DNA from: Octopus sinensis
Lineage: Eukaryota
DNA: 64,000 nt
Assembly: GCF_006345805.1 (NCBI RefSeq)
Contig: NC_042999.1
Span: 65,968,001 to 66,032,000 of the forward strand
Reading direction: 5' to 3'
Part shown: piece by piece, positions 25,946-64,000 of the stretch
Layout: every line of letters begins with the position of its first letter
Numbering within the stretch: position 1 is the stretch's first letter
Made by a program: the position numbers and the translations under genes
The notes under the pieces: generated by a model
Databases searched by the model: none
What the model saw: only the letters and a program-made list of their open reading frames with translations
What the model was told of the DNA's origin: nothing

Positions 25946-26822
25946 CAATAGAATTGACACTTAGCGAAAGAATGAAACTCATCAACGGTTGGTAAGTGCC
26001 TGCGTGCGAAAATCTCAGCATTTGAGTTACTCTGTGCTTGTGATTAATATTAATATATATATGTATGTATGTGTGTATCAGTGTGTATGTAGCAGATGCT
26101 AAAGAATGTTTCTGCCTGAGTGCGGCAGAAAGGAGACTATTAACGTGCAAAGTACACAGAAATGGACTATCGCTTTTTGCAGGAAATATTTTACTCCTTC
26201 TTCACATGTCAGTGGAGAAATTTTTAAGCTAATCAGCCGCTTTATGAAACCTGCTGATTCGTGGTTCGTGATCTATTGAAAAAATTCTCCATACTGATAA
26301 GGAAATATCATAAAAACTCAGAAATTTACTAAATAAGCTTAAATATTCTGTTATATAATAAAAAGTGAAAAAATAAAAAATAAATAAAGTATAGCAAAGC
26401 AAATGAATGCTTGATACATTAAAAAAAAAACATAAAAATGTTTGTATAAAGATTTTAGCGTAATTTATACTTTTGAAATAGTATTCACAGTTTAACATGC
26501 TTAGTGTCCTTCAGGCAAAGATTTTGCTAATGATATGTATAGTTTATACAGCATAAAATGAAAATAATCAAAAGGTATGATTGAAATGTAGTTAATTATA
26601 TACCATTGTGTTGGTTTATGCTAAGCTCATAATAGGAACACTGACGCCTCCTGCTATTTTTATGAAGCTGCCTTCTACGATCGAATAACTTCGGGCCCAC
26701 ACACGAAGCTCATGCACATACGTATACACAGAAACATGCATACATTATTACCAGATAAATCACACATATTCTGTAGAACATGGCATATCTACACACAAGC
26801 ATCCACATTTGCATATAAGTAA

Positions 26823-26869
<47 letters not shown>

Positions 26870-26901
26870 ATGTATATATATATATATATAATATATGTAT
26901 G

Positions 26902-26939
<38 letters not shown>

Positions 26940-26940
26940 G

Positions 26941-27177
26941 TATGCGGTTTTATATCTCTTTTCCCCTATCAGACTGTCTGTATATATATATACATATATA
27001 TATGTGTGTATGTGAGTGTGTGTATGTGTGTGTGTGTGCATGTGTGTATGTGTGTGTATGTGTGTGTGTGTATAATTATTATTATAATTATAATTTAGGG
27101 TATTTAAGAGATACCTCCACGGTGGAAATAGCAACCAAAGCTTAACTCTAAAACCACATTAAATGTTCAGTACCAGG

Positions 27178-27228
<51 letters not shown>

Positions 27229-27677
27229 TATATGTATGTATGCATATATATATATATACAGAGACAGTCTGATAGGGAAAAGAGATATAGAAAGCGCATA
27301 TTCATAACTATACACGAACTCAAGCGCACATCATCATGCATATACTGAGGCCTGTATGCGATAACCTCGGATGATATAATAAGAACCAAGGACTTCCTGC
27401 TGATATGATTAGACATGGGAATATACCACAACACAAAGCAAGATATAGCGAGTCTACAAAATGAAAGGTATGTGTCTGGTTACGTATTTCCAATTTGCAC
27501 ATGCATACATACATACATACATACATATATACACACTAACACATACATATATTCATATCCAGAGTAAGAAAGGGAGAAGAATGATAGAGAGAGTTACAGA
27601 TAGATAATGATATACGCATATACCTGTTTAATGTATTTTCACACTAGTTGGCATATGTATAGAGAGGTATATAAGAG

Positions 27678-27712
<35 letters not shown>

Positions 27713-27808
27713 TATATAATATATATATATATATTATATATAATATATAATGTATATATACATACATACACACACACACACACACACCACACAAATATAT
27801 ATATATAT

Positions 27809-27849
<41 letters not shown>

Positions 27850-28083
27850 CGGTTTCTATATCTCTTTTCCCCTATCAGACTGTCTGTATATATATATACA
27901 TATATATATGTGTGTATGTGAGTGTGTGTGTATGTGTGTGTGTGCATGTGTGTATGTGTGTGTATGTGTGTGTGTGTATAATTATTATTATAATTATAAT
28001 TTAGGGTATTTAAGAGATACCTCCACGGTGGAAATAGCAACCAAAACTTAACTCTAAAACCACATTAAATGTTCAGTACCAGG

Positions 28084-28134
<51 letters not shown>

Positions 28135-28584
28135 TATATGTATGTATGCATATATATATATATATACAGAGACAGTCTGATAGGGAAAAGAGATATAGAA
28201 AGCGCATATTCATAACTATACACGAACTCAAGCGCACATCATCATGCATATACTGAGGCCTGTATGCGATAACCTCGGATGATATAATAAGAACCAAGGA
28301 CTTCCTGCTGATATGATTAGACATGGGAATACCACAACACAAAGCAAGATATAGCGAGTCTACAAAATGAAAGGTATGTGTCTGGTTACGTATTTCCAAT
28401 TTGCACATGCATACATACATACATACATACATATATACACACTAACACATACATATATTCATATCCAGAGTAAGAAAGGGAGAAAGAATGATAGAGAGAG
28501 TTACAGATAGATAATGATATACGCATATACCTGTTTATATGTATTTTCACACTAGTTGGCATATGTATAGAGAGGTATATAAGA

Positions 28585-28590
<6 letters not shown>
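26941..28590. repeat. Two-copy tandem duplication, period ~905 bp
   Basis: Unique blocks at 26941-27680 recur nearly identically at 27846-28590, differing mainly in small indels and microsatellite length. Confidence 0.9.
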
Positions 28591-28643
<53 letters not shown>

Positions 28644-28694
28644 TATATAATATATATATGTATATATACATACATACACACACACACACACACA

Positions 28695-28783
<89 letters not shown>

Positions 28784-34533: not shown

Positions 34534-34957
34534 GACGTGTTTTTACTCCTCTCTGCGCCGGTCAGCAGCAAGATTTACAGCTACATTCGTCGTAATTGAC
34601 CATCACATATATTCCTGTATATTTGAAACCACGCTTTTTCGCAACTCGTGAGTAGACTTTTCCTTAACCACAAACTATTTTCATAATTTTCAAACGACCA
34701 AATATTTTCAAACACCTTCTGATAACTAAAGGATCACCTACACATTAAAAAATTAGAAAAAGAGGGGAAAAAAGGAAAAGAAAAGAAAGATAAAATAACT
34801 ACAAGCTCATAATTCAAATATAAACTTCTCAGTAATACAGCAAACATTCTGTACAATCAATTCTACATACTTCTCCTTAAAAAAAAAAAAAAAATAACTA
34901 AAAGTAATCAACAAAACAAACGAACAAAATAAAATTTAATAAAACATATCAACCAGA

Positions 34958-36572
34958 ATGGCTAGCCACCAAAAATCCAACAAAAACTGGTCTGATAATG
35001 AAGTCGACGTTCTTATCAACACATGGCATGGCCTTACCGAAACAGAGAGTATAGGTGCTTCGTGTCTGAACGAAATTGCTAAACGAACAGTTCACCATTT
35101 GCAAACTCGATCTGAACAGCAGATACAAAATAAATTAAAACAAATCGAAGTTGCTTTTAAATTAATAAATAAACACTTCGATAAACTGAGATGTGTTTTC
35201 TCTTCGAACGCATCACCGGCGAAACAACAACAACAACAACCTCAACAACAACAAACTCAGCGGCAACAACAACAACAACAGCTACATCAACAACAACAAC
35301 TTCAGCAGCAACAACCTCAGCGACAACAACAACAACCTCAACAACAAACTCAGCGGCAACAACAACAACAGATACAGCAACAACAACAGGATGAACCACT
35401 CCTTGATTCATCTCTTTAAAAGACTCTCTTTAAAGACTCCGTCGGTTACGACGACGAGGGTCCCAGCTGATACGATCAACGGAACAGCTTGCTCGTGAAA
35501 TTAACGTGCAAATGGCTGAGCATTCCACAGACACGTGTGCCCTTAACGTAGTTCTCGGGGATAATCAGCGTGACACAGAGAGTGACAAGGCTGACCCTTT
35601 GAAATACAAGTACAACTCATTTTTGCCAGCTGAGTGGACTGGAGCAACGTGAAATAAAGTGTCTTGCTCAAGGACACAACGCGTCGCCGGGAATCGAACT
35701 CACAACCTTATGATCATGAGCCGAATGCCCTAACCACTAAGCCACGCGCCCTCACTTGATTCATCTACAATGGCCGATTTGCTAAACGAAACGATTGACC
35801 CCCCAGTCATCAGGGTCACACAGCAGGAAGCATCACCCCTTCCTTTCACTGCCCCAGCAGCTCAATCATCATCATTGTCAACGCCATCTCCTCTGCTTAC
35901 TACTACTAGTACTACTCCCACTATGTATCGACAAACATCTTTGTCTTGGAATCGACCTCCTCAATCATTACCACTGTCAACATCTCTTCTACCTACTACT
36001 ACTACTACAACTACTACTACTAATGCTATCTCAAGGAATTTACCTCCTACAGGTCACAAAGGTCGCCAAAACTTCAACAAACTATCATCTACACCTTTCA
36101 CAACTCACAAACACACACACGCACCTACACACCCACTCGTAACCCCATCATTTGCCGATATTCTCTTCGCCATAGACTGTGCACTGATAGAGACTGCAAA
36201 TTCACCCATTTACCTGGAACAAAACGCTCTATCCCCACAAACTACAACAGCAACCACCATAATACAACATCACCACAACCACCAATATCTCAAACAAGGA
36301 ATCCCCAAATCTGCCGCTATTCCCAGCGAGACAGATTGTGTTTGCACAGGGATTGCCACTTTACCCATCTCCCGGGGACTCGTCGGACATTTAAAGATAA
36401 CCATTCACATAAAGATAGCCGCGGCCACAGTCACCTGCGGTTCCCTAGACAGGAAACCACCTCTTCTTCCTCTTTTTTAGCTATAATGAATCTAGCAAAA
36501 GAACTGGAAAAAAGCATCCGAGCTATCACCCACCACCATCCACCACTATTACCCCACTGCACATACCATTAA
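34958..36572 (+). pseudogene. LINE ORF1 (~420 aa reconstructed): Myb/SANT-like + polyQ + S/T/P linker + 2x CCCH zinc finger
   Basis: ORFs 34958 and 35770 join in frame once the SINE and one TSD (35414-35766) are removed. One further frameshift between 36024 and 36150 leads into CRYSLRHRLCTDRDCKFTH (36153) and CRYSQRDRLCLHRDCHFTH (36312); stop at 36572. Confidence 0.8.
35414..35754 (-). mobile_element. SINE family C inserted in LINE ORF1, 12-bp TSD
   Basis: tRNA-like head GGGCGCGTGGCTTAGTGGTTAGG...GTTCGATTCCC on the minus strand. TSD CTTGATTCATCT at 35402-35413 and 35755-35766; short duplicated tail. Confidence 0.92.
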
Positions 36573-39500
36573 AAAGCAATCAAATAAACAAACCACCAAA
36601 ACAATTAAAACCATCCACTCTCGCCTCAACATTTCTGCTTAATGCCCAAGGCATCAGCCCTTCCACCAATACACAAAAATGGAAGATAAGATTCCTGGAG
36701 GACTGGGTCGAGGCCCATCCAAACCACATCCCTTTCTTCGTCCTCACTGAAACCCATCTTAGTGACCTCCACTTGGAAGCCGAGGTGAAAGTTAAAAATT
36801 TCAAAACCATTCGTGCTGATCGTGCTGGCAGAAGAAAGGGTGGGACTGCCATTTATGTCCATGATTCATTCTCAACAGAAGCCATGAACATACTTTCCAA
36901 TGGATACTGCGAAGCAGTCGCTGTATTCAGTCAAACCAACAACTTAACAGTAGTTGGGCTCTACAGACCACCCCAAACGCCCCTACCATGCTTCAAGGAA
37001 TGCCTCAACAGCATAAAGTGTTTCATTCAGCAGTGTCAACCTGACAACATTTTAATGATGGGAGACTTCAACCTTCCCGGGGTTAACTGGTCTACAAACA
37101 GTCTGCCGCCAGGTTCTTCTCTCTCAACCCCTGACAGGGAGGCAGTGGAATCGCTTCTTGACTTCATGGATGACTTCTTCTTGTCCCAACTGGTACTCGA
37201 ACCAACGAGATGTCACAAAAACGTCTTAGACTTAATTTTCAGCAATCACACTGATACTATCCACAATATTGCAGTGGAGAAAACTCTACTCTCCGACCAT
37301 GACATGGTTCTCTGTGATCTGAGATTTCACTGGCCAAAATGCAAAACAAATGTCATCCCTCCTGTTCATCCATTTGATACTATGGATTTCCACAATGCAA
37401 ACCGGGAAGCGATCAATAATGATCTTGCACATGTCGATTGGTCCTTCACGCACACATACACACCCACTAACATCAAAAGTCCTGGCAGTCACTTGTAGAC
37501 ACCATCACGAACATTGTGCAAGACACACCCCATTAAGATCTGCAAACAAATCTAAGTGTCGAATCCCTAGAAATAGAAAATCTCTCATAAGGAAAATTAA
37601 AAGAATCAACAAAAGGATCAACATGCTGAAATACTGTCAACAGCAACACACCAACCTGACTGCCATCTCGTCGCTAGAGATTAAAAAACATACACTCCAA
37701 AACAACATGATGTCTATCATCAATAGTCAGCGAAGAGCTGAAGAGGCCTGGGCCATTGAGAAGATCAAACTCAATCCGAAAGTGTTCTTTTCATTTGCAA
37801 AAAAACATAAAGTCACTGGTTCTACTGTTGGCCCTCTGATTGATGAAAATGGTACTCTTCAAGACAATGCCAAAACCATGGGAGAGATATTGCAGAAACA
37901 ATATTGCTCTGTTTTCAGCAATCCAGATATGACTGATCAGGGCTGTATCAGTGATGTTACTCCCCAATACACTTTATCGGACATAACATTTGGCGCTCCT
38001 GATGTCTTAGCAGCAATAAAGGAAATGAAGCATAATTCAGCAGTAGGTCCCGATAGGTTCCCTGCTTGTGTCTTGAAGATGTGCCAAAACCAACTTGCAC
38101 CCCCTCTAGCCAATCTGTGGCGGAACTCACTGGATGCTGGATATATACCAGAAGACCTTCTATCCCAGTCTGTTGTCCCAGTTTTCAAAAAAGGAAACAA
38201 ATCGCTTGCCGTGAATTACCGTCCAATCTCACTCACCTCTCATATCATCAAGGTATTTGAGAGGGTGCTAAGATCGCGTATGACTCACTTCCTTGAGAGT
38301 CATAATATGCTGAACCCCAACCAGCATGGATTCCGTAATGGGAGAGATTGCCTGACGCAGCTACTGCATCATTTTGATGACATTTTGAGAGCCTTGGGAG
38401 AAGGTTCCAACACTGATGTCATCTACCTTGATTTCAGCAAGGCCTTTGACAGGGTTGATCATAAGATCCTTCTGAGAAAGCTGTCCAATATTGGTGTCAC
38501 TGGAAAGCTGCTGCAATGGATCAAGTGCTTCCTGTCTAACAGAACCCAACATGTTGTAGTCGAAGGAGTCAAATCCAGCCCAGCCAAAGTCAGCAGTGGT
38601 GTCCCACAAGGCACTGTGTTGGGCCCACTTCTCTTCATCATCTACATAAATGATATTACTGACACCATCAAACACAGTAACATCAGAACCTTCGCTGATG
38701 ATTCCAAGCTCCAGAAGGTCATCAATGGCGTGGATGACCGAATAAACCTTCAGTCAGACCTACTGGATGTTGTCCAATGGGCGGAAAAGAATAACATGTT
38801 GCTAAATGAAGACAAATTCGAACTGATCCACTTTGGAAGGGAGGACGCTCTGAAACTCCCATACTCTCTTCCTTCTGGAGAAATTCTCATGGCATCCAAC
38901 AACATCAGAGACCTGGGAGTAACAGTGGACAACAACATAAGCTGGGCTACACATATAAGCAGCAAAGTTGACATGGCCCGCAGAATGTGTTCCTGGATTC
39001 TCAGAACCTTCCAGTCGAGAGATTCCCACGCTATTATCCTTCTCTTCTCCACTTTTGCCCGACCCCACCTTGAATACTGCTGTCCACTGTGGTCTCCCTA
39101 CACAAAACAAAATATTATGAGAATTGAAGCTGCCCAAAGGTCAATCACAAAAAAGATAGATGGCATGTCAGACCTTGACTACTGGGGTAGACAGAGAAGC
39201 TGAAATTGTATTCACTCCAACGACGCCGTGAACGCTACATTATCTGTATGATGTGGAAAATATTCCACCAGCACTGTCCGAATGATGTTGGCATCACCTT
39301 CAAAATGCATCCAAGGCTTGGACCAACGTGCCATCCGTCCACAACAAAAATCTAAATCGCATCACATAACGACAATACGGCACAACTATTTCACCTCAAT
39401 TGGACCTTTCTCTTCAACATTACACAAGGACACGTCAAAAAAGAACTGACCACACAAAATTCAAGAAGTCTTTGGACAAATTCCTTCAATCAGTACCGGA

Positions 39501-61128: not shown

Positions 61129-61208
61129 ACCATGACCTATTTGTAGGTTTAATAAAAGTAAAATAGAGTAAAGAACGAAAACTATGCAAAATCATTTTGC
61201 CCCACCCT

Positions 61209-61255
<47 letters not shown>

Positions 61256-61437
61256 CGATTTAGGTGACCCCAACAGGTCACTCGTCACCAGAAAGAGCAG
61301 CCATAACTCACACCGCCAAGTATTATTAATTCAGAAATTAGGTGAAAATTTAAAAACATTTACCCTAATTCATCTTTTAGACGTGGCAACGTTTCTGTGT
61401 CATTAATGATTAAATTAGCTTAATTAAATTAAATTAA

Positions 61438-61640
61438 TGTATGTATGTATGTATGTATGCATGTGTGTATGTATGTATGTATGTATGTATGTATGTATGT
61501 ATGTATGTATGTATGTATGTATGTATGCATGTGTGTATGTATGTATGTATGTATGTATGTATGTATGTATGCATGTGTGTATGTATGTATGTATGTATGT
61601 ATGTATGTATGTATGTATGTATGTATGTATGTATGTGTGT
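61438..61640. repeat. (TATG)n tetranucleotide microsatellite
   Basis: Seen directly. Confidence 0.95.
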
Positions 61641-62447
61641 ATTATGAGAGAGAGAGAGAGAGAGGCGAGGAAGAGAAAGACGGACAGAGATAGGGAAAAA
61701 GACGCACAGGACAAGAACATGAAATAACAGTTGAAAGGAGATGAGTTAGCAAGAAGAAATATCAGACTCAGAATATTCTTTTAGCTGCCAAATTAATATT
61801 CCGTACCCAGTGACTCGTGTGAAATATTCGTTGGTCGAAGTTGACAGCTGAGACGTTCGGATCCAGTTACATCGTGCAGCCGGGTTGAGCAAGATGATAT
61901 GTATGTTGGAGAGGCACGCCTCTATCTGGGACGACGCGTTTCAACAGGATACAAATGTCTGTTACACAGAGACCGTTGTGACCTGCTTCGCTGTTCGCTG
62001 TCACTCCGAACAAAGAATGTAATGTAGTATTACATGGACACCTCTACGTTCTGAAAGTTACACTTCATCAGTAAAGACCTGGGAGAGACAAATATACACG
62101 AGGCGTCTGTATCGAAGCCTACGGGATATCTGACTTAAAATTTTCAAGACTGACGTATTCGCGCCAAACTTATCAACAGTAAATATAAACTGCCGATTCA
62201 ATCTCAGAATTATTCAGAAAATTATCAATTAGTCAATTTAGGGTAGCAAAAAAAATTCAATAGAAATTTATCGCAACCAGCGGCCTGGTGAAAAAGAGAA
62301 AATAGTCATCGACTAAATATAAATATAACGATTTAGGAGTGACCCCAACAGGTCACTCGTCCACCAGAAAGAGCAGCCATAACTCACACCGCCAAGTATT
62401 ATTAATTCAGAAATTAGGTGAAAATTTAAAAACATTTACCCTAATTC

Positions 62448-62550
62448 ATCTTTTAGACGTTGCAACGTTTCTGTGTCATTAATGATTAAATTAGCTTAAT
62501 TAAATTAAATTAAGCCAATCTACCATAGGTTACACTTCATCAGTAAAGAC
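62448..62550 (-). ncRNA. Type I hammerhead ribozyme candidate (unit 2)
   Basis: Minus strand: GUCUUUA-CUGAUGA-AGUGU...ACACA-GAAAC-GUUGCAAC-GUC-UAAAAGAU. Confidence 0.65.
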
Positions 62551-62926
62551 CTGGGAGAGGAGAGAGACCAAATATACACGAGGCGTATGTATCGAAGCCT
62601 ACGGGATATCTGACTTAAAATTTTCAAGACTGACGTATTCGCGCCAAACTTATCAACAGTAAATATAAACTGCCGATTCAATCTCAGAATTATTCAGAAA
62701 ATTATCAATAGTCAATTTAGGGTAGGCAAAAAAAATTCAATAGAAATTTATCGCAACCGGGGCTGGTGAAAAAGAGAAAATAGTCATCGACTAAATATAT
62801 AAATATAACGATTTAGGAGTGACCCCAACAGGTCACTCGTCACCAGAAAGAGCAGCCATAAACTCGCACCGCCAAGTATTATTAATCAGAAATTAGGTGA
62901 AAATTTAAAAACATTTACCCTAATTC

Positions 62927-63029
62927 ATCTTTTAGACGTTGCAACGTTTCTGTGTCATTAATGATTAAATTAGCTTAATTAAATTAAATTAAGCCAATCT
63001 ACCATAGGTTACACTTCATCAGTAAAGAC
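62927..63029 (-). ncRNA. Type I hammerhead ribozyme candidate (unit 3)
   Basis: Same motif as unit 2; the GUC triplets are 479 nt apart. Confidence 0.65.
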
Positions 63030-63243
63030 CTGGGAGAGACAAATATACACGAGGCGTCTGGTATCGAAGCCTACGGGATATCTGACTTAAAATTTTCAAG
63101 ACTGACGTATTCGCGCCAAACTTATCAACAGTAAATATAAACTGCGATTCAATCTCAGAATTATTCAGAAAATTATCAATTAGTCAATTTAGGGTAGCAA
63201 AAAAATTCAATAGAAATTTATCGCAACCAGCGGCCTGGTGAAA

Positions 63244-63287
<44 letters not shown>

Positions 63288-63665
63288 TATATATATATAA
63301 TCCCTTTAAAGGTCGAATTATAAGTATTAAAGCGCTACCGATAGTTCATATTTTGAGAAAACTCAAACATTGTTTAGGCGCAAACCACATATCATAACGA
63401 ACTAAAGAAACTGAATAAGAGAAGAACCGTGAAAAAACTGAGAAGGCAGCATTTAGAAAGCGCAGACAGTAAACATCGGAGAACAGAAAATAGAGAAACG
63501 AACAACAAGAAAATAAAATTTCAGAACTAGAATGTAAAAAGTAAAAAATGTAAAAGAACCATCCTCTTTACACCTTAAATAATCAGGCTGGAAAGTTAAC
63601 AAGTCAGTCAGGAATAGGCGGAAATTTCTAATTCTTCAAAATACATCTATATATATATATATATA

Positions 63666-64000
63666 CATGAACCACTGAACGATTCTGACCTGGAGTTCAA
63701 TAGAGTGTTAAGGATCTCAGATCTGAACAGGATCTGCGCTCTTTCAGCCAAAGAAAGTCCACATTTATTCAATCCATTCACATAAGGTATAGACTTTTCA
63801 ACTCCTTTCCATTTAATCAGATGCGGTGTTTCGTAATTTTTAAAAGTCCATATGTAGCTAGCCAACTTATTAGCTTTACTTTTGACCCTATGTCGGAAGG
63901 AGGCTATGTGATTGGCATAGCGGCTTTTATATTCACCTTCTTATAATCCAGTGTAGGACTTCTTATCAGTTGTATTTTTATTTAGGGTTGCAGTAACGTC
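63666..64000 (-). pseudogene. Penelope-like element ORF C-terminus (GIY-YIG endonuclease), continues beyond the window
   Basis: A single frame reads KKSYTGL*EGEYKSRYANHIASFRH...KLASYIWTFK...IKWKGVEKSIPYVNGLNKCGLSLAERAQIL...LLNSRSE. This matches the PLE pattern YIG...FK.RY.NH..SF...LS.YIW...KC.LCL.EK..I...LN.RSE. Confidence 0.85.

Follow-up and report, generated by a model that had tools for sequence, protein, structure and literature searches.

Organization of the insertion

The stretch of DNA analyzed here (the window) covers 64,000 nucleotides of the Octopus sinensis contig NC_042999.1 (positions 65,968,001 to 66,032,000 of the forward strand, assembly GCF_006345805.1). Near its right end it holds a tandem array of about three units of some 480 bp, set between two (TA)n tracts. 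Each unit carries a type I hammerhead ribozyme on the minus strand, at least two consecutive ones (units 2 and 3) being complete, with the CUGAUGA boxes starting at 63022, 62543 and 62071 (Table 1). The array is likely to be a retrozyme of the type devoid of long terminal repeats (non-LTR retrozyme), copied by the reverse transcriptase (RT) of a Penelope-like element (PLE). Tandem Repeats Finder gives a period of 480 with 2.5 copies and 94% matches at 62057-63245, and the GC content is 0.32 across the hammerhead region. Units 2 and 3 are without any open frame of at least 60 codons, the search of three PLE proteins against six natural units by tblastn gave no match, and no Pfam family was obtained for the four window frames searched.

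A first-pass annotation of the sequence had placed hammerhead cores on the minus strand of units 2 and 3 with their GUC sites 479 nt apart, and this is borne out. It had also described three near-identical units: units 2 and 3 are indeed intact, but unit 1 is split by a 620-bp insertion which holds its two hammerhead halves (62071-62057 and 61436-61380) apart. Unit 1 further differs by an A to C change in stem III and is 2 nt short in the GAGTGACC hairpin. The window locus contains only one arm, ending at the first of the two fixed 3′ ends of the family (E1), and the second end (E2) is internal here and unused as an end.

Hammerhead fold and its covariation

The canonical core (CUGANGA, GAAA and NUH) is present together with the three closing helices, and these have the composition described at first: stem III is the palindrome ACGUUGCAACGU, stem I is UCUUUA/UAAAAGA, and the base of stem II is GUGU/ACAC with an A·A apposition at positions 10.1/11.1. 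A search with hammerhead models had been proposed as a check; the Rfam models gave no match in the window end or in six related loci, even at loose E-values, so that the hammerhead call is based on the core and on covariation. The latter was analyzed on 34 hammerheads hand-picked across subfamilies from 80 distinct types, after a pairing pre-filter which discarded just 7 of 147 distinct pattern hits. Our own model built on such relatives (R1), which include the copy of unit 2, scores the unit 3 hammerhead at 109 bits.

Among the 34 relatives the 13 pairs of stems I-III are paired in 93.9% of the cells, against 24-40% in slid controls. Changes on both sides of a pair occur in 105 cells against 36.6 in shuffles, none of 500 shuffles reached an equal score, and 10 of the 13 pairs show such changes; these relatives share ancestry, and the cells are thus not independent events. 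Two further pair-count measures were no better than the shuffles (126 and 375 of 500). In 27 of the 34 relatives stem III is a perfect 12-nt palindrome, with five different sequences, and within the young family to which the window units belong the stem I mismatch has been turned into a Watson-Crick pair in two separate ways.

The canonical G10.1-C11.1 pair is replaced by A·A in the window units, a feature which had been considered atypical and possibly weakening. Across the relatives this position is GC in 19, AA in 10, GU in 2, AU in 2 and CA in 1, and a young PLE family whose 727-codon frames are open has a hammerhead with A·A as well. On these comparative grounds A·A at the base of stem II would not be a sign of decay, as it recurs both in relatives and in that young element. 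We have also observed a C instead of U at core position 4 in 11 of the 34 hammerheads, whose stems still covary (for example L194, L195, L213 and L227), which suggests that the C4 core is a tolerated natural variant.

The short stem II (4 bp) and the loop 1-loop 2 contact of canonical hammerheads are absent, the stem II region being 65 nt long. It had been drawn as a branched structure enclosing an ACC/GGU hairpin; RNAfold instead gives GUGU/ACAC, an internal loop with ACCU unpaired, and then a single long hairpin. A pairing between GGY, 5′ of stem I, and RCC in this internal loop is possible in 33 of the 34 relatives, whereas the ACC/GGU hairpin can be formed in 22 of 34. The variable pair of this pseudoknot is kept in all 32 anchored rows (CG 23, UA 7, UG 2), a result matched by 1 of 10,000 shuffles, even though the covariation may reflect just one or two evolutionary events. 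The next pair outward is weaker (20 of 32) and those beyond fail; only a core of 3-4 bp is supported. Pairing of the stem I flank with the internal loop of stem II into a pseudoknot is thus probable, and the predicted combination of extended hairpin and pseudoknot appears likelier than a branched stem II.

Conservation extends beyond the ribozyme. A whole-unit alignment (n=19) contains more conserved helices, amounting to 63 pairs of which 16 have double changes, and these include a hairpin preceding E1 and a long-range helix around the hammerhead. The E1-proximal hairpin has compensatory changes among relatives and may be considered a candidate recognition element for the PLE protein. The monomer folded as a circle has z = -3.4 on the minus strand and -1.8 on the opposite strand (40 shuffles each).

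A family of arrays with fixed ends

The unit belongs to a repeat family of the genome (G000), with 219 matches among the best 40 of 1,034 candidates. A genome-wide search for copies, envisaged in the first-pass annotation as a source of stem covariation, proved fruitful: the exact core pattern occurs 557 times and its reversed control 0 times, and a looser pattern occurs 1,447 times with 1 control hit, so that a young family of 557 cores is nested in an older superfamily of 1,447. Sister subfamilies are 68-95% identical over the whole unit and are likewise tandem and flanked by TA, and the unit length is steady at about 470-490 nt down to 70% identity. Branches below 70% identity (L269:342-468; L180:532-642 on the minus strand; L237; L241) indicate a lineage deeper than the one sampled. 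No short-stem-II version of the exact hammerhead, as might be expected of a possible autonomous parent, was found, two loci with sister motifs 5 kb apart have no PLE open reading frame (ORF), and twenty further sister loci have no PLE ORF of at least 180 codons. Two sequences adjacent to arrays are worth recording: an open frame of at least 1,650 codons right next to a sister array (L238:1-4950, plus strand), whose motifs resemble those of a Helitron Rep-helicase, and in the left flank of L058 another hammerhead-like repeat with an altered core (CUGUAGA ... GAAACGU).

The insertion pattern was determined in 75 loci, comprising the window, 36 loci found by similarity and 38 by position in the core-pattern list; L068, a near-duplicate of L054, was left out, and L031 is without a unit. 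In the hammerhead sense, 124 of 128 arm 3′ ends are at E1 (71) or E2 (53), about 95 nt apart, and 46 of the 75 loci are composed of back-to-back inverted arms, one ending at each of these sites. The arms span 0.1 to 10.3 units and their 5′ ends are spread, as results from variable truncation, with 2 of 128 at the cut site. The fixed ends abut (TA)n in 121 of 123 scored cases, a cruder flank test having given lower numbers because the alignments entered the TA tract; owing to this location, target-site duplications are unreadable. No LTR layout was seen in the 75 loci, where no formal tRNA-complement search was made. The truncation points cluster mildly at unit positions 220-223 (8 of 128, in the 5′ strand of stem I) and 433-449 (11 of 128, near E1).

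A fixed 3′ end with an optional tail, 5′ truncation, an inverted partner and a (TA)n target are all found here. Tails, inverted 5′-truncated partners and (TA)n bias are described for PLEs (PMC8557442), whose tail has been accounted for in vitro by two internal RT start sites (PMC11167929). By analogy, the PLE-type ends, tails and (TA)n bias indicate that the hammerhead strand would be the RNA template and that the enzyme making these insertions is very likely a PLE protein.

These ends also bear on the possibility that we are dealing with a satellite-like DNA repeat, carrying a fossil hammerhead and spread by DNA circles or recombination, or with arrays created by assembly errors. The tandem layout would suit such an origin, the indel noise between units suggests an imperfect long-read consensus, and polishing could homogenise adjacent units. 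The strand-polar ends (fixed 3′, ragged 5′), the two exact end sites and the (TA)n targeting are, in contrast, those of retroposition, and the strong compensatory change argues for selection on RNA structure. Polishing would moreover drive units to the genome majority and not to the locus-private alleles reported below, and contigs of the independent runs X2 and X19 also hold head-to-tail unit joins; compensatory variants, too, are present among the run contigs. A satellite or assembly origin is thus largely refuted and we regard it as very improbable, including the assembly artefact that had been named at first as a possible refutation. The contigs of runs X15 and X18, whose type is uncertain, have a summed depth on the unit thousands-fold that on the unique insert, which may be due to copy number alone; such depths are no measure of expression and nothing is drawn from them.

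Clonality of the units

If the arrays are retroposed by a PLE protein, the form of the template has to be considered, and the variation between units is informative in this respect. The analysis of substitutions away from gaps in 358 unit pieces yielded 271 locus-variant pairs fixed in all covering units, 2 partial ones and 164 singletons. All 204 multi-carrier variants testable on two arms are present on both, most of them being subfamily variants. Among fixed variants private to one locus there are 24, in 17 loci, and 14 of them are on both inverted arms, in 11 loci. The distance amounts to 0.24% within arms, 0.29% across arms and 1.9% between loci, and the 44 multi-unit loci correspond to 34 haplotypes. 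As the units within a locus are near-identical, the array was likely copied round a single RNA circle: judging from the sequences, the simplest reading is that one monomer was copied repeatedly, most likely as a circle. Repeated copying of one monomer has indeed been proposed for retrozymes (PMC7229834; PMC4209133).

The only partial variants are in L055 (unit position 327) and L065 (position 133). Circles of two or three units were considered and rejected, since the two variants show no clean period; that of L055 nearly alternates between units, a pattern that might come from polishing, from stochastic misreading or from a dimer circle. In comparisons between loci the four-gamete test fails for 63 of 405 site pairs, some of the sites being near indels and maybe artefacts, hinting at recombination among templates or recurrent change.

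Clonality would be equally well accounted for by a linear self-cleaved monomer, with the RT, on reaching the 5′ end, jumping at each turn back to the 3′ end of that molecule or onto a sibling monomer, no covalent circle being formed. End-to-end jumping is known in other non-LTR RTs, and the microhomology capture of the 620-bp piece at the window locus points to template switching or templated repair. Jumping should, nevertheless, leave traces: the GUC junction is seamless in about 263 copies, with 0-1 events of added or lost bases at each position and hence no excess at the cut site, where just 2 of the 128 5′ ends are located, and an RT moving from one molecule to another should have left mixed haplotypes in a locus, of which there is no sign. 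We thus consider a jumping RT improbable.

Proposed mechanism

From these results we consider it likely that the window array and its relatives are non-LTR retrozymes generated by a PLE RT running repeatedly round one monomeric RNA circle. By sequence, the arrays qualify as non-LTR retrozymes carrying the signature of PLE integration, and they are not autonomous PLEs, having no ORF with RT and GIY-YIG endonuclease between pseudo-long terminal repeats (pLTRs). A tandem non-LTR retrozyme mobilised by a PLE RT had been put forward from the window alone, and this idea is now better supported by the family, the covariation, the ends and the clonality. According to this mechanism, read-through transcription of an array in the hammerhead sense would be followed by cleavage after GUC, aided by the pseudoknot, releasing a monomer of about 475 nt which would be ligated into a circle. 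A PLE RT-endonuclease, most plausibly of the Hydra clade, would nick (TA)n and start complementary DNA (cDNA) from within the unit, at E1, E2 or both, with a single site for each target strand. Each cDNA would then circle for 0.1 to 10 turns, and two 5′-truncated ends would be joined back to back. A broader proposal, to which we give about an even chance, is that a long-lived lineage of circular RNA of about 480 nt, with a pseudoknotted long-stem-II hammerhead, parasitises Hydra-clade PLE proteins with which it shares no sequence, every array being the fossil of one rolling-circle reverse transcription from two priming sites on one circle.

A number of observations weigh against this mechanism. 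The clonality argument hinges on the share of singletons that are real and were present in the source arrays: at 5% real, about 2 partial variants would be expected from multi-unit templates, which equals the 2 seen, and at 25% about 10, so that below some 10% of real singletons multi-unit linear templates would also leave few partials. Contigs of uncertain run type cover the unit, in which DNA and RNA, or circle and tandem, are indistinguishable. The minimum-energy fold of the 120-nt hammerhead lacks stems I and III, the hammerhead fold lying about 4 kcal/mol above the local minimum when the pseudoknot is not counted. Fixed variants are rarer in the hammerhead than singletons predict (6 of 52), weakly so: the depletion has p = 0.015 overall and p = 0.15 in the unbiased half of the loci, those not selected by core pattern. 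No autonomous PLE similar to the unit is present among three young intact families of the genome. A PLE studied in vitro used uncleaved RNA and did not need the hammerhead (PMC11167929), and eight of nine predicted frog retrozyme dimers failed to cleave, one of the nine tested being cleaved (10.64898/2026.07.22.740005).

Several of these points favour the view that the repeat is derived from a PLE, is non-autonomous and was copied, with no circle, from linear transcripts that hold several units and stay uncleaved, the arrays growing and being homogenised as DNA and the hammerhead being kept for another or a late step. In the PLE just mentioned uncleaved RNA was the dominant substrate (PMC11167929); linear copying of homogeneous source arrays would likewise give near-identical units, and should most singletons be assembly errors, partial variants would be few. 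Still, linear copying with 5′ truncation makes arrays shorter and never longer, and arms of 10 units exist; such templates also offer no route to fixation on both arms as seen for the 14 private variants in 11 loci; even with few partials, private-variant fixation and long arms are left unexplained. Growth at the DNA level by unequal exchange should also leave nested partials, whereas among 273 multi-carrier cases there are 2 partial ones, both without a mirrored counterpart on the other arm. We thus regard linear multi-unit templates as unlikely.

Comparison with known systems

Like the metazoan non-LTR retrozymes of coral, mussel and axolotl (PMC7229834; 10.64898/2026.07.22.740005), the family is made of short, non-coding, AT-rich tandem units, each having a type I hammerhead and scattered, as dimers and longer multimers, over a genome that contains active PLEs. 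For a mismatch at the stem II base, too, there is an earlier example, namely U·U in HHR_Amex2. The unit, at 470-490 nt, is above the 150-450 nt first described for retrozymes and inside the 51-972 bp range of 10.64898/2026.07.22.740005. It differs from them in its stem II region of 45-80 nt with a long AU hairpin, in a palindromic stem III of 4 bp, and in the predicted Watson-Crick pseudoknot which replaces the canonical loop 1-loop 2 contact. The exact PLE-type ends and inverted arms are not described for retrozymes in the accessible text of PMC7229834 and PMC7761336, and according to the latter, a 2020 review, retrozymes show no motif identifying the helper. Animal retrozymes have been argued in a 2026 preprint, from vertebrate genomes, to derive from PLE pLTRs (10.64898/2026.07.22.740005).

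With Hydra-clade PLEs (PMC8557442) the family shares (TA)n targeting, a 3′-proximal hammerhead, tandem or inverted 5′-truncated insertions and a tail at one end. Unlike them, it lacks an ORF and repeats the whole unit up to 10 times, not a partial pLTR, and at neither the DNA nor the protein level is a similarity to the intact families tested detectable. The tails of the Hydra-type families of this genome are of about 58-72 nt, one of these families having A·A at 10.1/11.1, and that of the window family is of about 95 nt. The Poseidon PLE of Anolis (PAc; PMC11167929) likewise has two internal RT start sites past the hammerhead, beside a stem-loop, and AT-rich targets of which both strands are nicked and extended; in contrast to the window family, PAc is autonomous, its hammerhead is minimal and protein-assisted, and its start sites bound a short tail. 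In pseudoknotted hammerheads, about 40% of the hammerhead representatives in PMC3088659, the regions of stems I and II are similarly joined by base pairing instead of a loop-loop contact. The repeat considered here is from an animal, and its stem I flank would pair, over a core of 3-4 bp, with an internal loop in a stem II of great length.

The retrozyme model of hammerhead cleavage, circle and PLE-made tandem cDNA was put forward in print as a hypothesis: neither the conversion of the circle to DNA nor the helper is shown in the accessible text of PMC7229834 and PMC7761336. The present family leaves footprints of both, in its exact PLE-type ends and its clonal two-armed arrays, and if the broader proposal made above is correct it would provide direct genomic evidence for the hypothetical step from circular RNA to DNA in animal retrozymes, as well as a natural, reconstitutable system writing tandem DNA from circular RNA. 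The open mechanistic question of retrozymes becomes a direct experiment, the same genome holding intact PLE proteins, and for ribozyme biochemistry a ready-made set of variants exists in nature, with G-C, A-U, G·U or A·A at 10.1/11.1 and with C4 cores. Families of this kind may go unnoticed elsewhere, because the variant is invisible to Rfam and has spacers beyond the core search of PMC8557442. The literature searched, which did not extend to most subscription papers, Repbase or supplements, gave no account of this family, nor did it report retrozyme insertions that are inverted and two-ended, or clonality within a locus.

The neighbouring element and candidate helpers

The first-pass annotation had noted an endonuclease frame upstream of the array on the same strand, and this is confirmed, its end being about 410 bp away; its suggested role as partner of the array does not hold, as it belongs to a separate, old Hydra-clade PLE with a 3′ untranslated region (UTR) and a hammerhead of its own. 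The endonuclease region is 35-40% identical to intact Hydra-type proteins of the genome, and the family (12,755 first-look candidates, the best other copy being 78% identical) carries the CxCX5C linker, which is a mark of the Hydra clade (PMC8557442). A search of the protein database for relatives of greater length gave none, which is weak evidence. The type I hammerhead of this old family (window 63300-63660, minus strand, and L074-L092) has A-U at 10.1/11.1 and a near-palindromic stem III, and the family has two 3′ ends about 58 nt apart.

The common strand and the short distance would be compatible with the array being an amplified pLTR of this PLE, the two forming one element with the endonuclease ORF. 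The PLE's own 3′ UTR, hammerhead and 3′ end, however, precede the (TA)n, the unit has no DNA similarity to the old PLE, including 19 other copies of its family, and only 1 of 37 other array loci has an endonuclease match within 10 kb, a partial one. Moreover, the PLE family is old and broken while the arrays are young, so that we find an amplified pLTR hardly credible. Judging from the sequence layout, the neighbouring PLE is a bystander that supplied the (TA)n, the retrozyme array sitting in its terminal tract.

Three young PLE families with long open frames are present in the genome, two of Hydra type (727 and 717 codons) and a third whose 775-codon frame has a GIY-YIG domain at its C terminus. 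The two-end (E1/E2) inverted layout of the retrozyme recurs in the 727-codon family, and 26 PLE-bearing stretches (the two Hydra-type families and the 775-codon one) contain no terminal homology of the unit to an autonomous PLE. Since none of the three families shares unit sequence, the helper is a guess, the best one, by analogy of target and tail length, being a Hydra-type PLE protein. The hammerhead with A·A of the 727-codon family is minimal, the 717-codon family has a core-like CCGAAGA...GAAAC motif, and the 775-codon family has no obvious hammerhead core by eye in its 3′ region.

Table 1. Coordinates of the array, of the adjacent element and of the young PLE families (window positions, except for the last three rows).
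Feature	Position	Strand	Remarks
Whole insertion	61255..63245	minus	one arm, ~3 units; 5′ truncation at 63245; fixed 3′ end (E1) at ~61255
Unit 3 hammerhead	62923..63042	minus	CUGAUGA 63022-63016; G12 at 62950; GUC 62937-62935
Unit 2 hammerhead	62444..62563	minus	CUGAUGA 62543-62537; GUC 62458-62456
Predicted monomer	62456..62934	minus	479 nt cut to cut, bounded by two GUC sites
Unit 1, 5′ part	62057..62295	minus	closes with first hammerhead half, CUGAUGA 62071-62065
Unit 1, 3′ part	61255..61436	minus	carries second hammerhead half, GUC 61382-61380
Templated insertion	61437..62059		620 bp, in place of 15 bp of unit 1 stem II
Predicted pseudoknot, unit 2	62527..62552	minus	AGGU 62552-62549 (5′ of stem I) with ACCU 62530-62527 (stem II internal loop)
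Predicted pseudoknot, unit 3	63031-63028 / 63009-63006	minus	same pairing as unit 2
E1-proximal hairpin	62337..62358, 62817-62838; shortened copy ~61262-61283	minus	8 bp, immediately 5′ of the E1 end
E2 site	63181..63193	minus	other fixed 3′ end of the family, located ~95 nt past E1; not terminal at this locus
(TA)n target, left flank	61208..61254
(TA)n target, right flank	63246..63299		doubles as 3′ flank of the old PLE
Old Hydra-clade PLE, 3′ UTR	63300..63660	minus	own decayed hammerhead at ~63381-63330; outside the retrozyme
Old PLE, broken C-terminal endonuclease region	63662..64000	minus	runs briefly on into L031
Young PLE family, 727 codons	L249-L255, L260-L268
Young PLE family, 717 codons	L256-L258
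Young PLE family, 775 codons	L269-L274

The captured fragment in unit 1

The 620-bp piece that splits unit 1 has 2 matches genome-wide and is 98.8% identical, over its 413-bp unique part, to another contig, C17 (~19370190-19370826), a donor region with no retrozyme unit within the 20 kb examined. A GTT microhomology (3 nt, 62057-62059) joins the insert to the unit, and either an RT template switch or later break repair would have placed the copy in stem II of the unit made first. No run contig spans the insert-unit junction at 62057, which is thus supported by the assembly alone, and X18 has the donor version of the insert. A YVGEAR-like frame on the plus strand of the insert was considered as the GIY-YIG domain of a parent element and rejected: the likeness is by eye only, the frame belongs to the captured piece, and it has no Pfam match and no tblastn match to three intact PLE proteins.

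Other features of the window

Two further features were recorded away from the array. On the plus strand, at window positions 34943-39203, lies what by its motifs we take to be a long interspersed nuclear element (LINE)-like element with endonuclease-like and RT-like frames, its upstream frame containing a Q-rich stretch and the later frames being broken by frameshifts. At ~26760-28781 there is a local tandem duplication of about 880 bp, seen as repeated frames and microsatellite sets.

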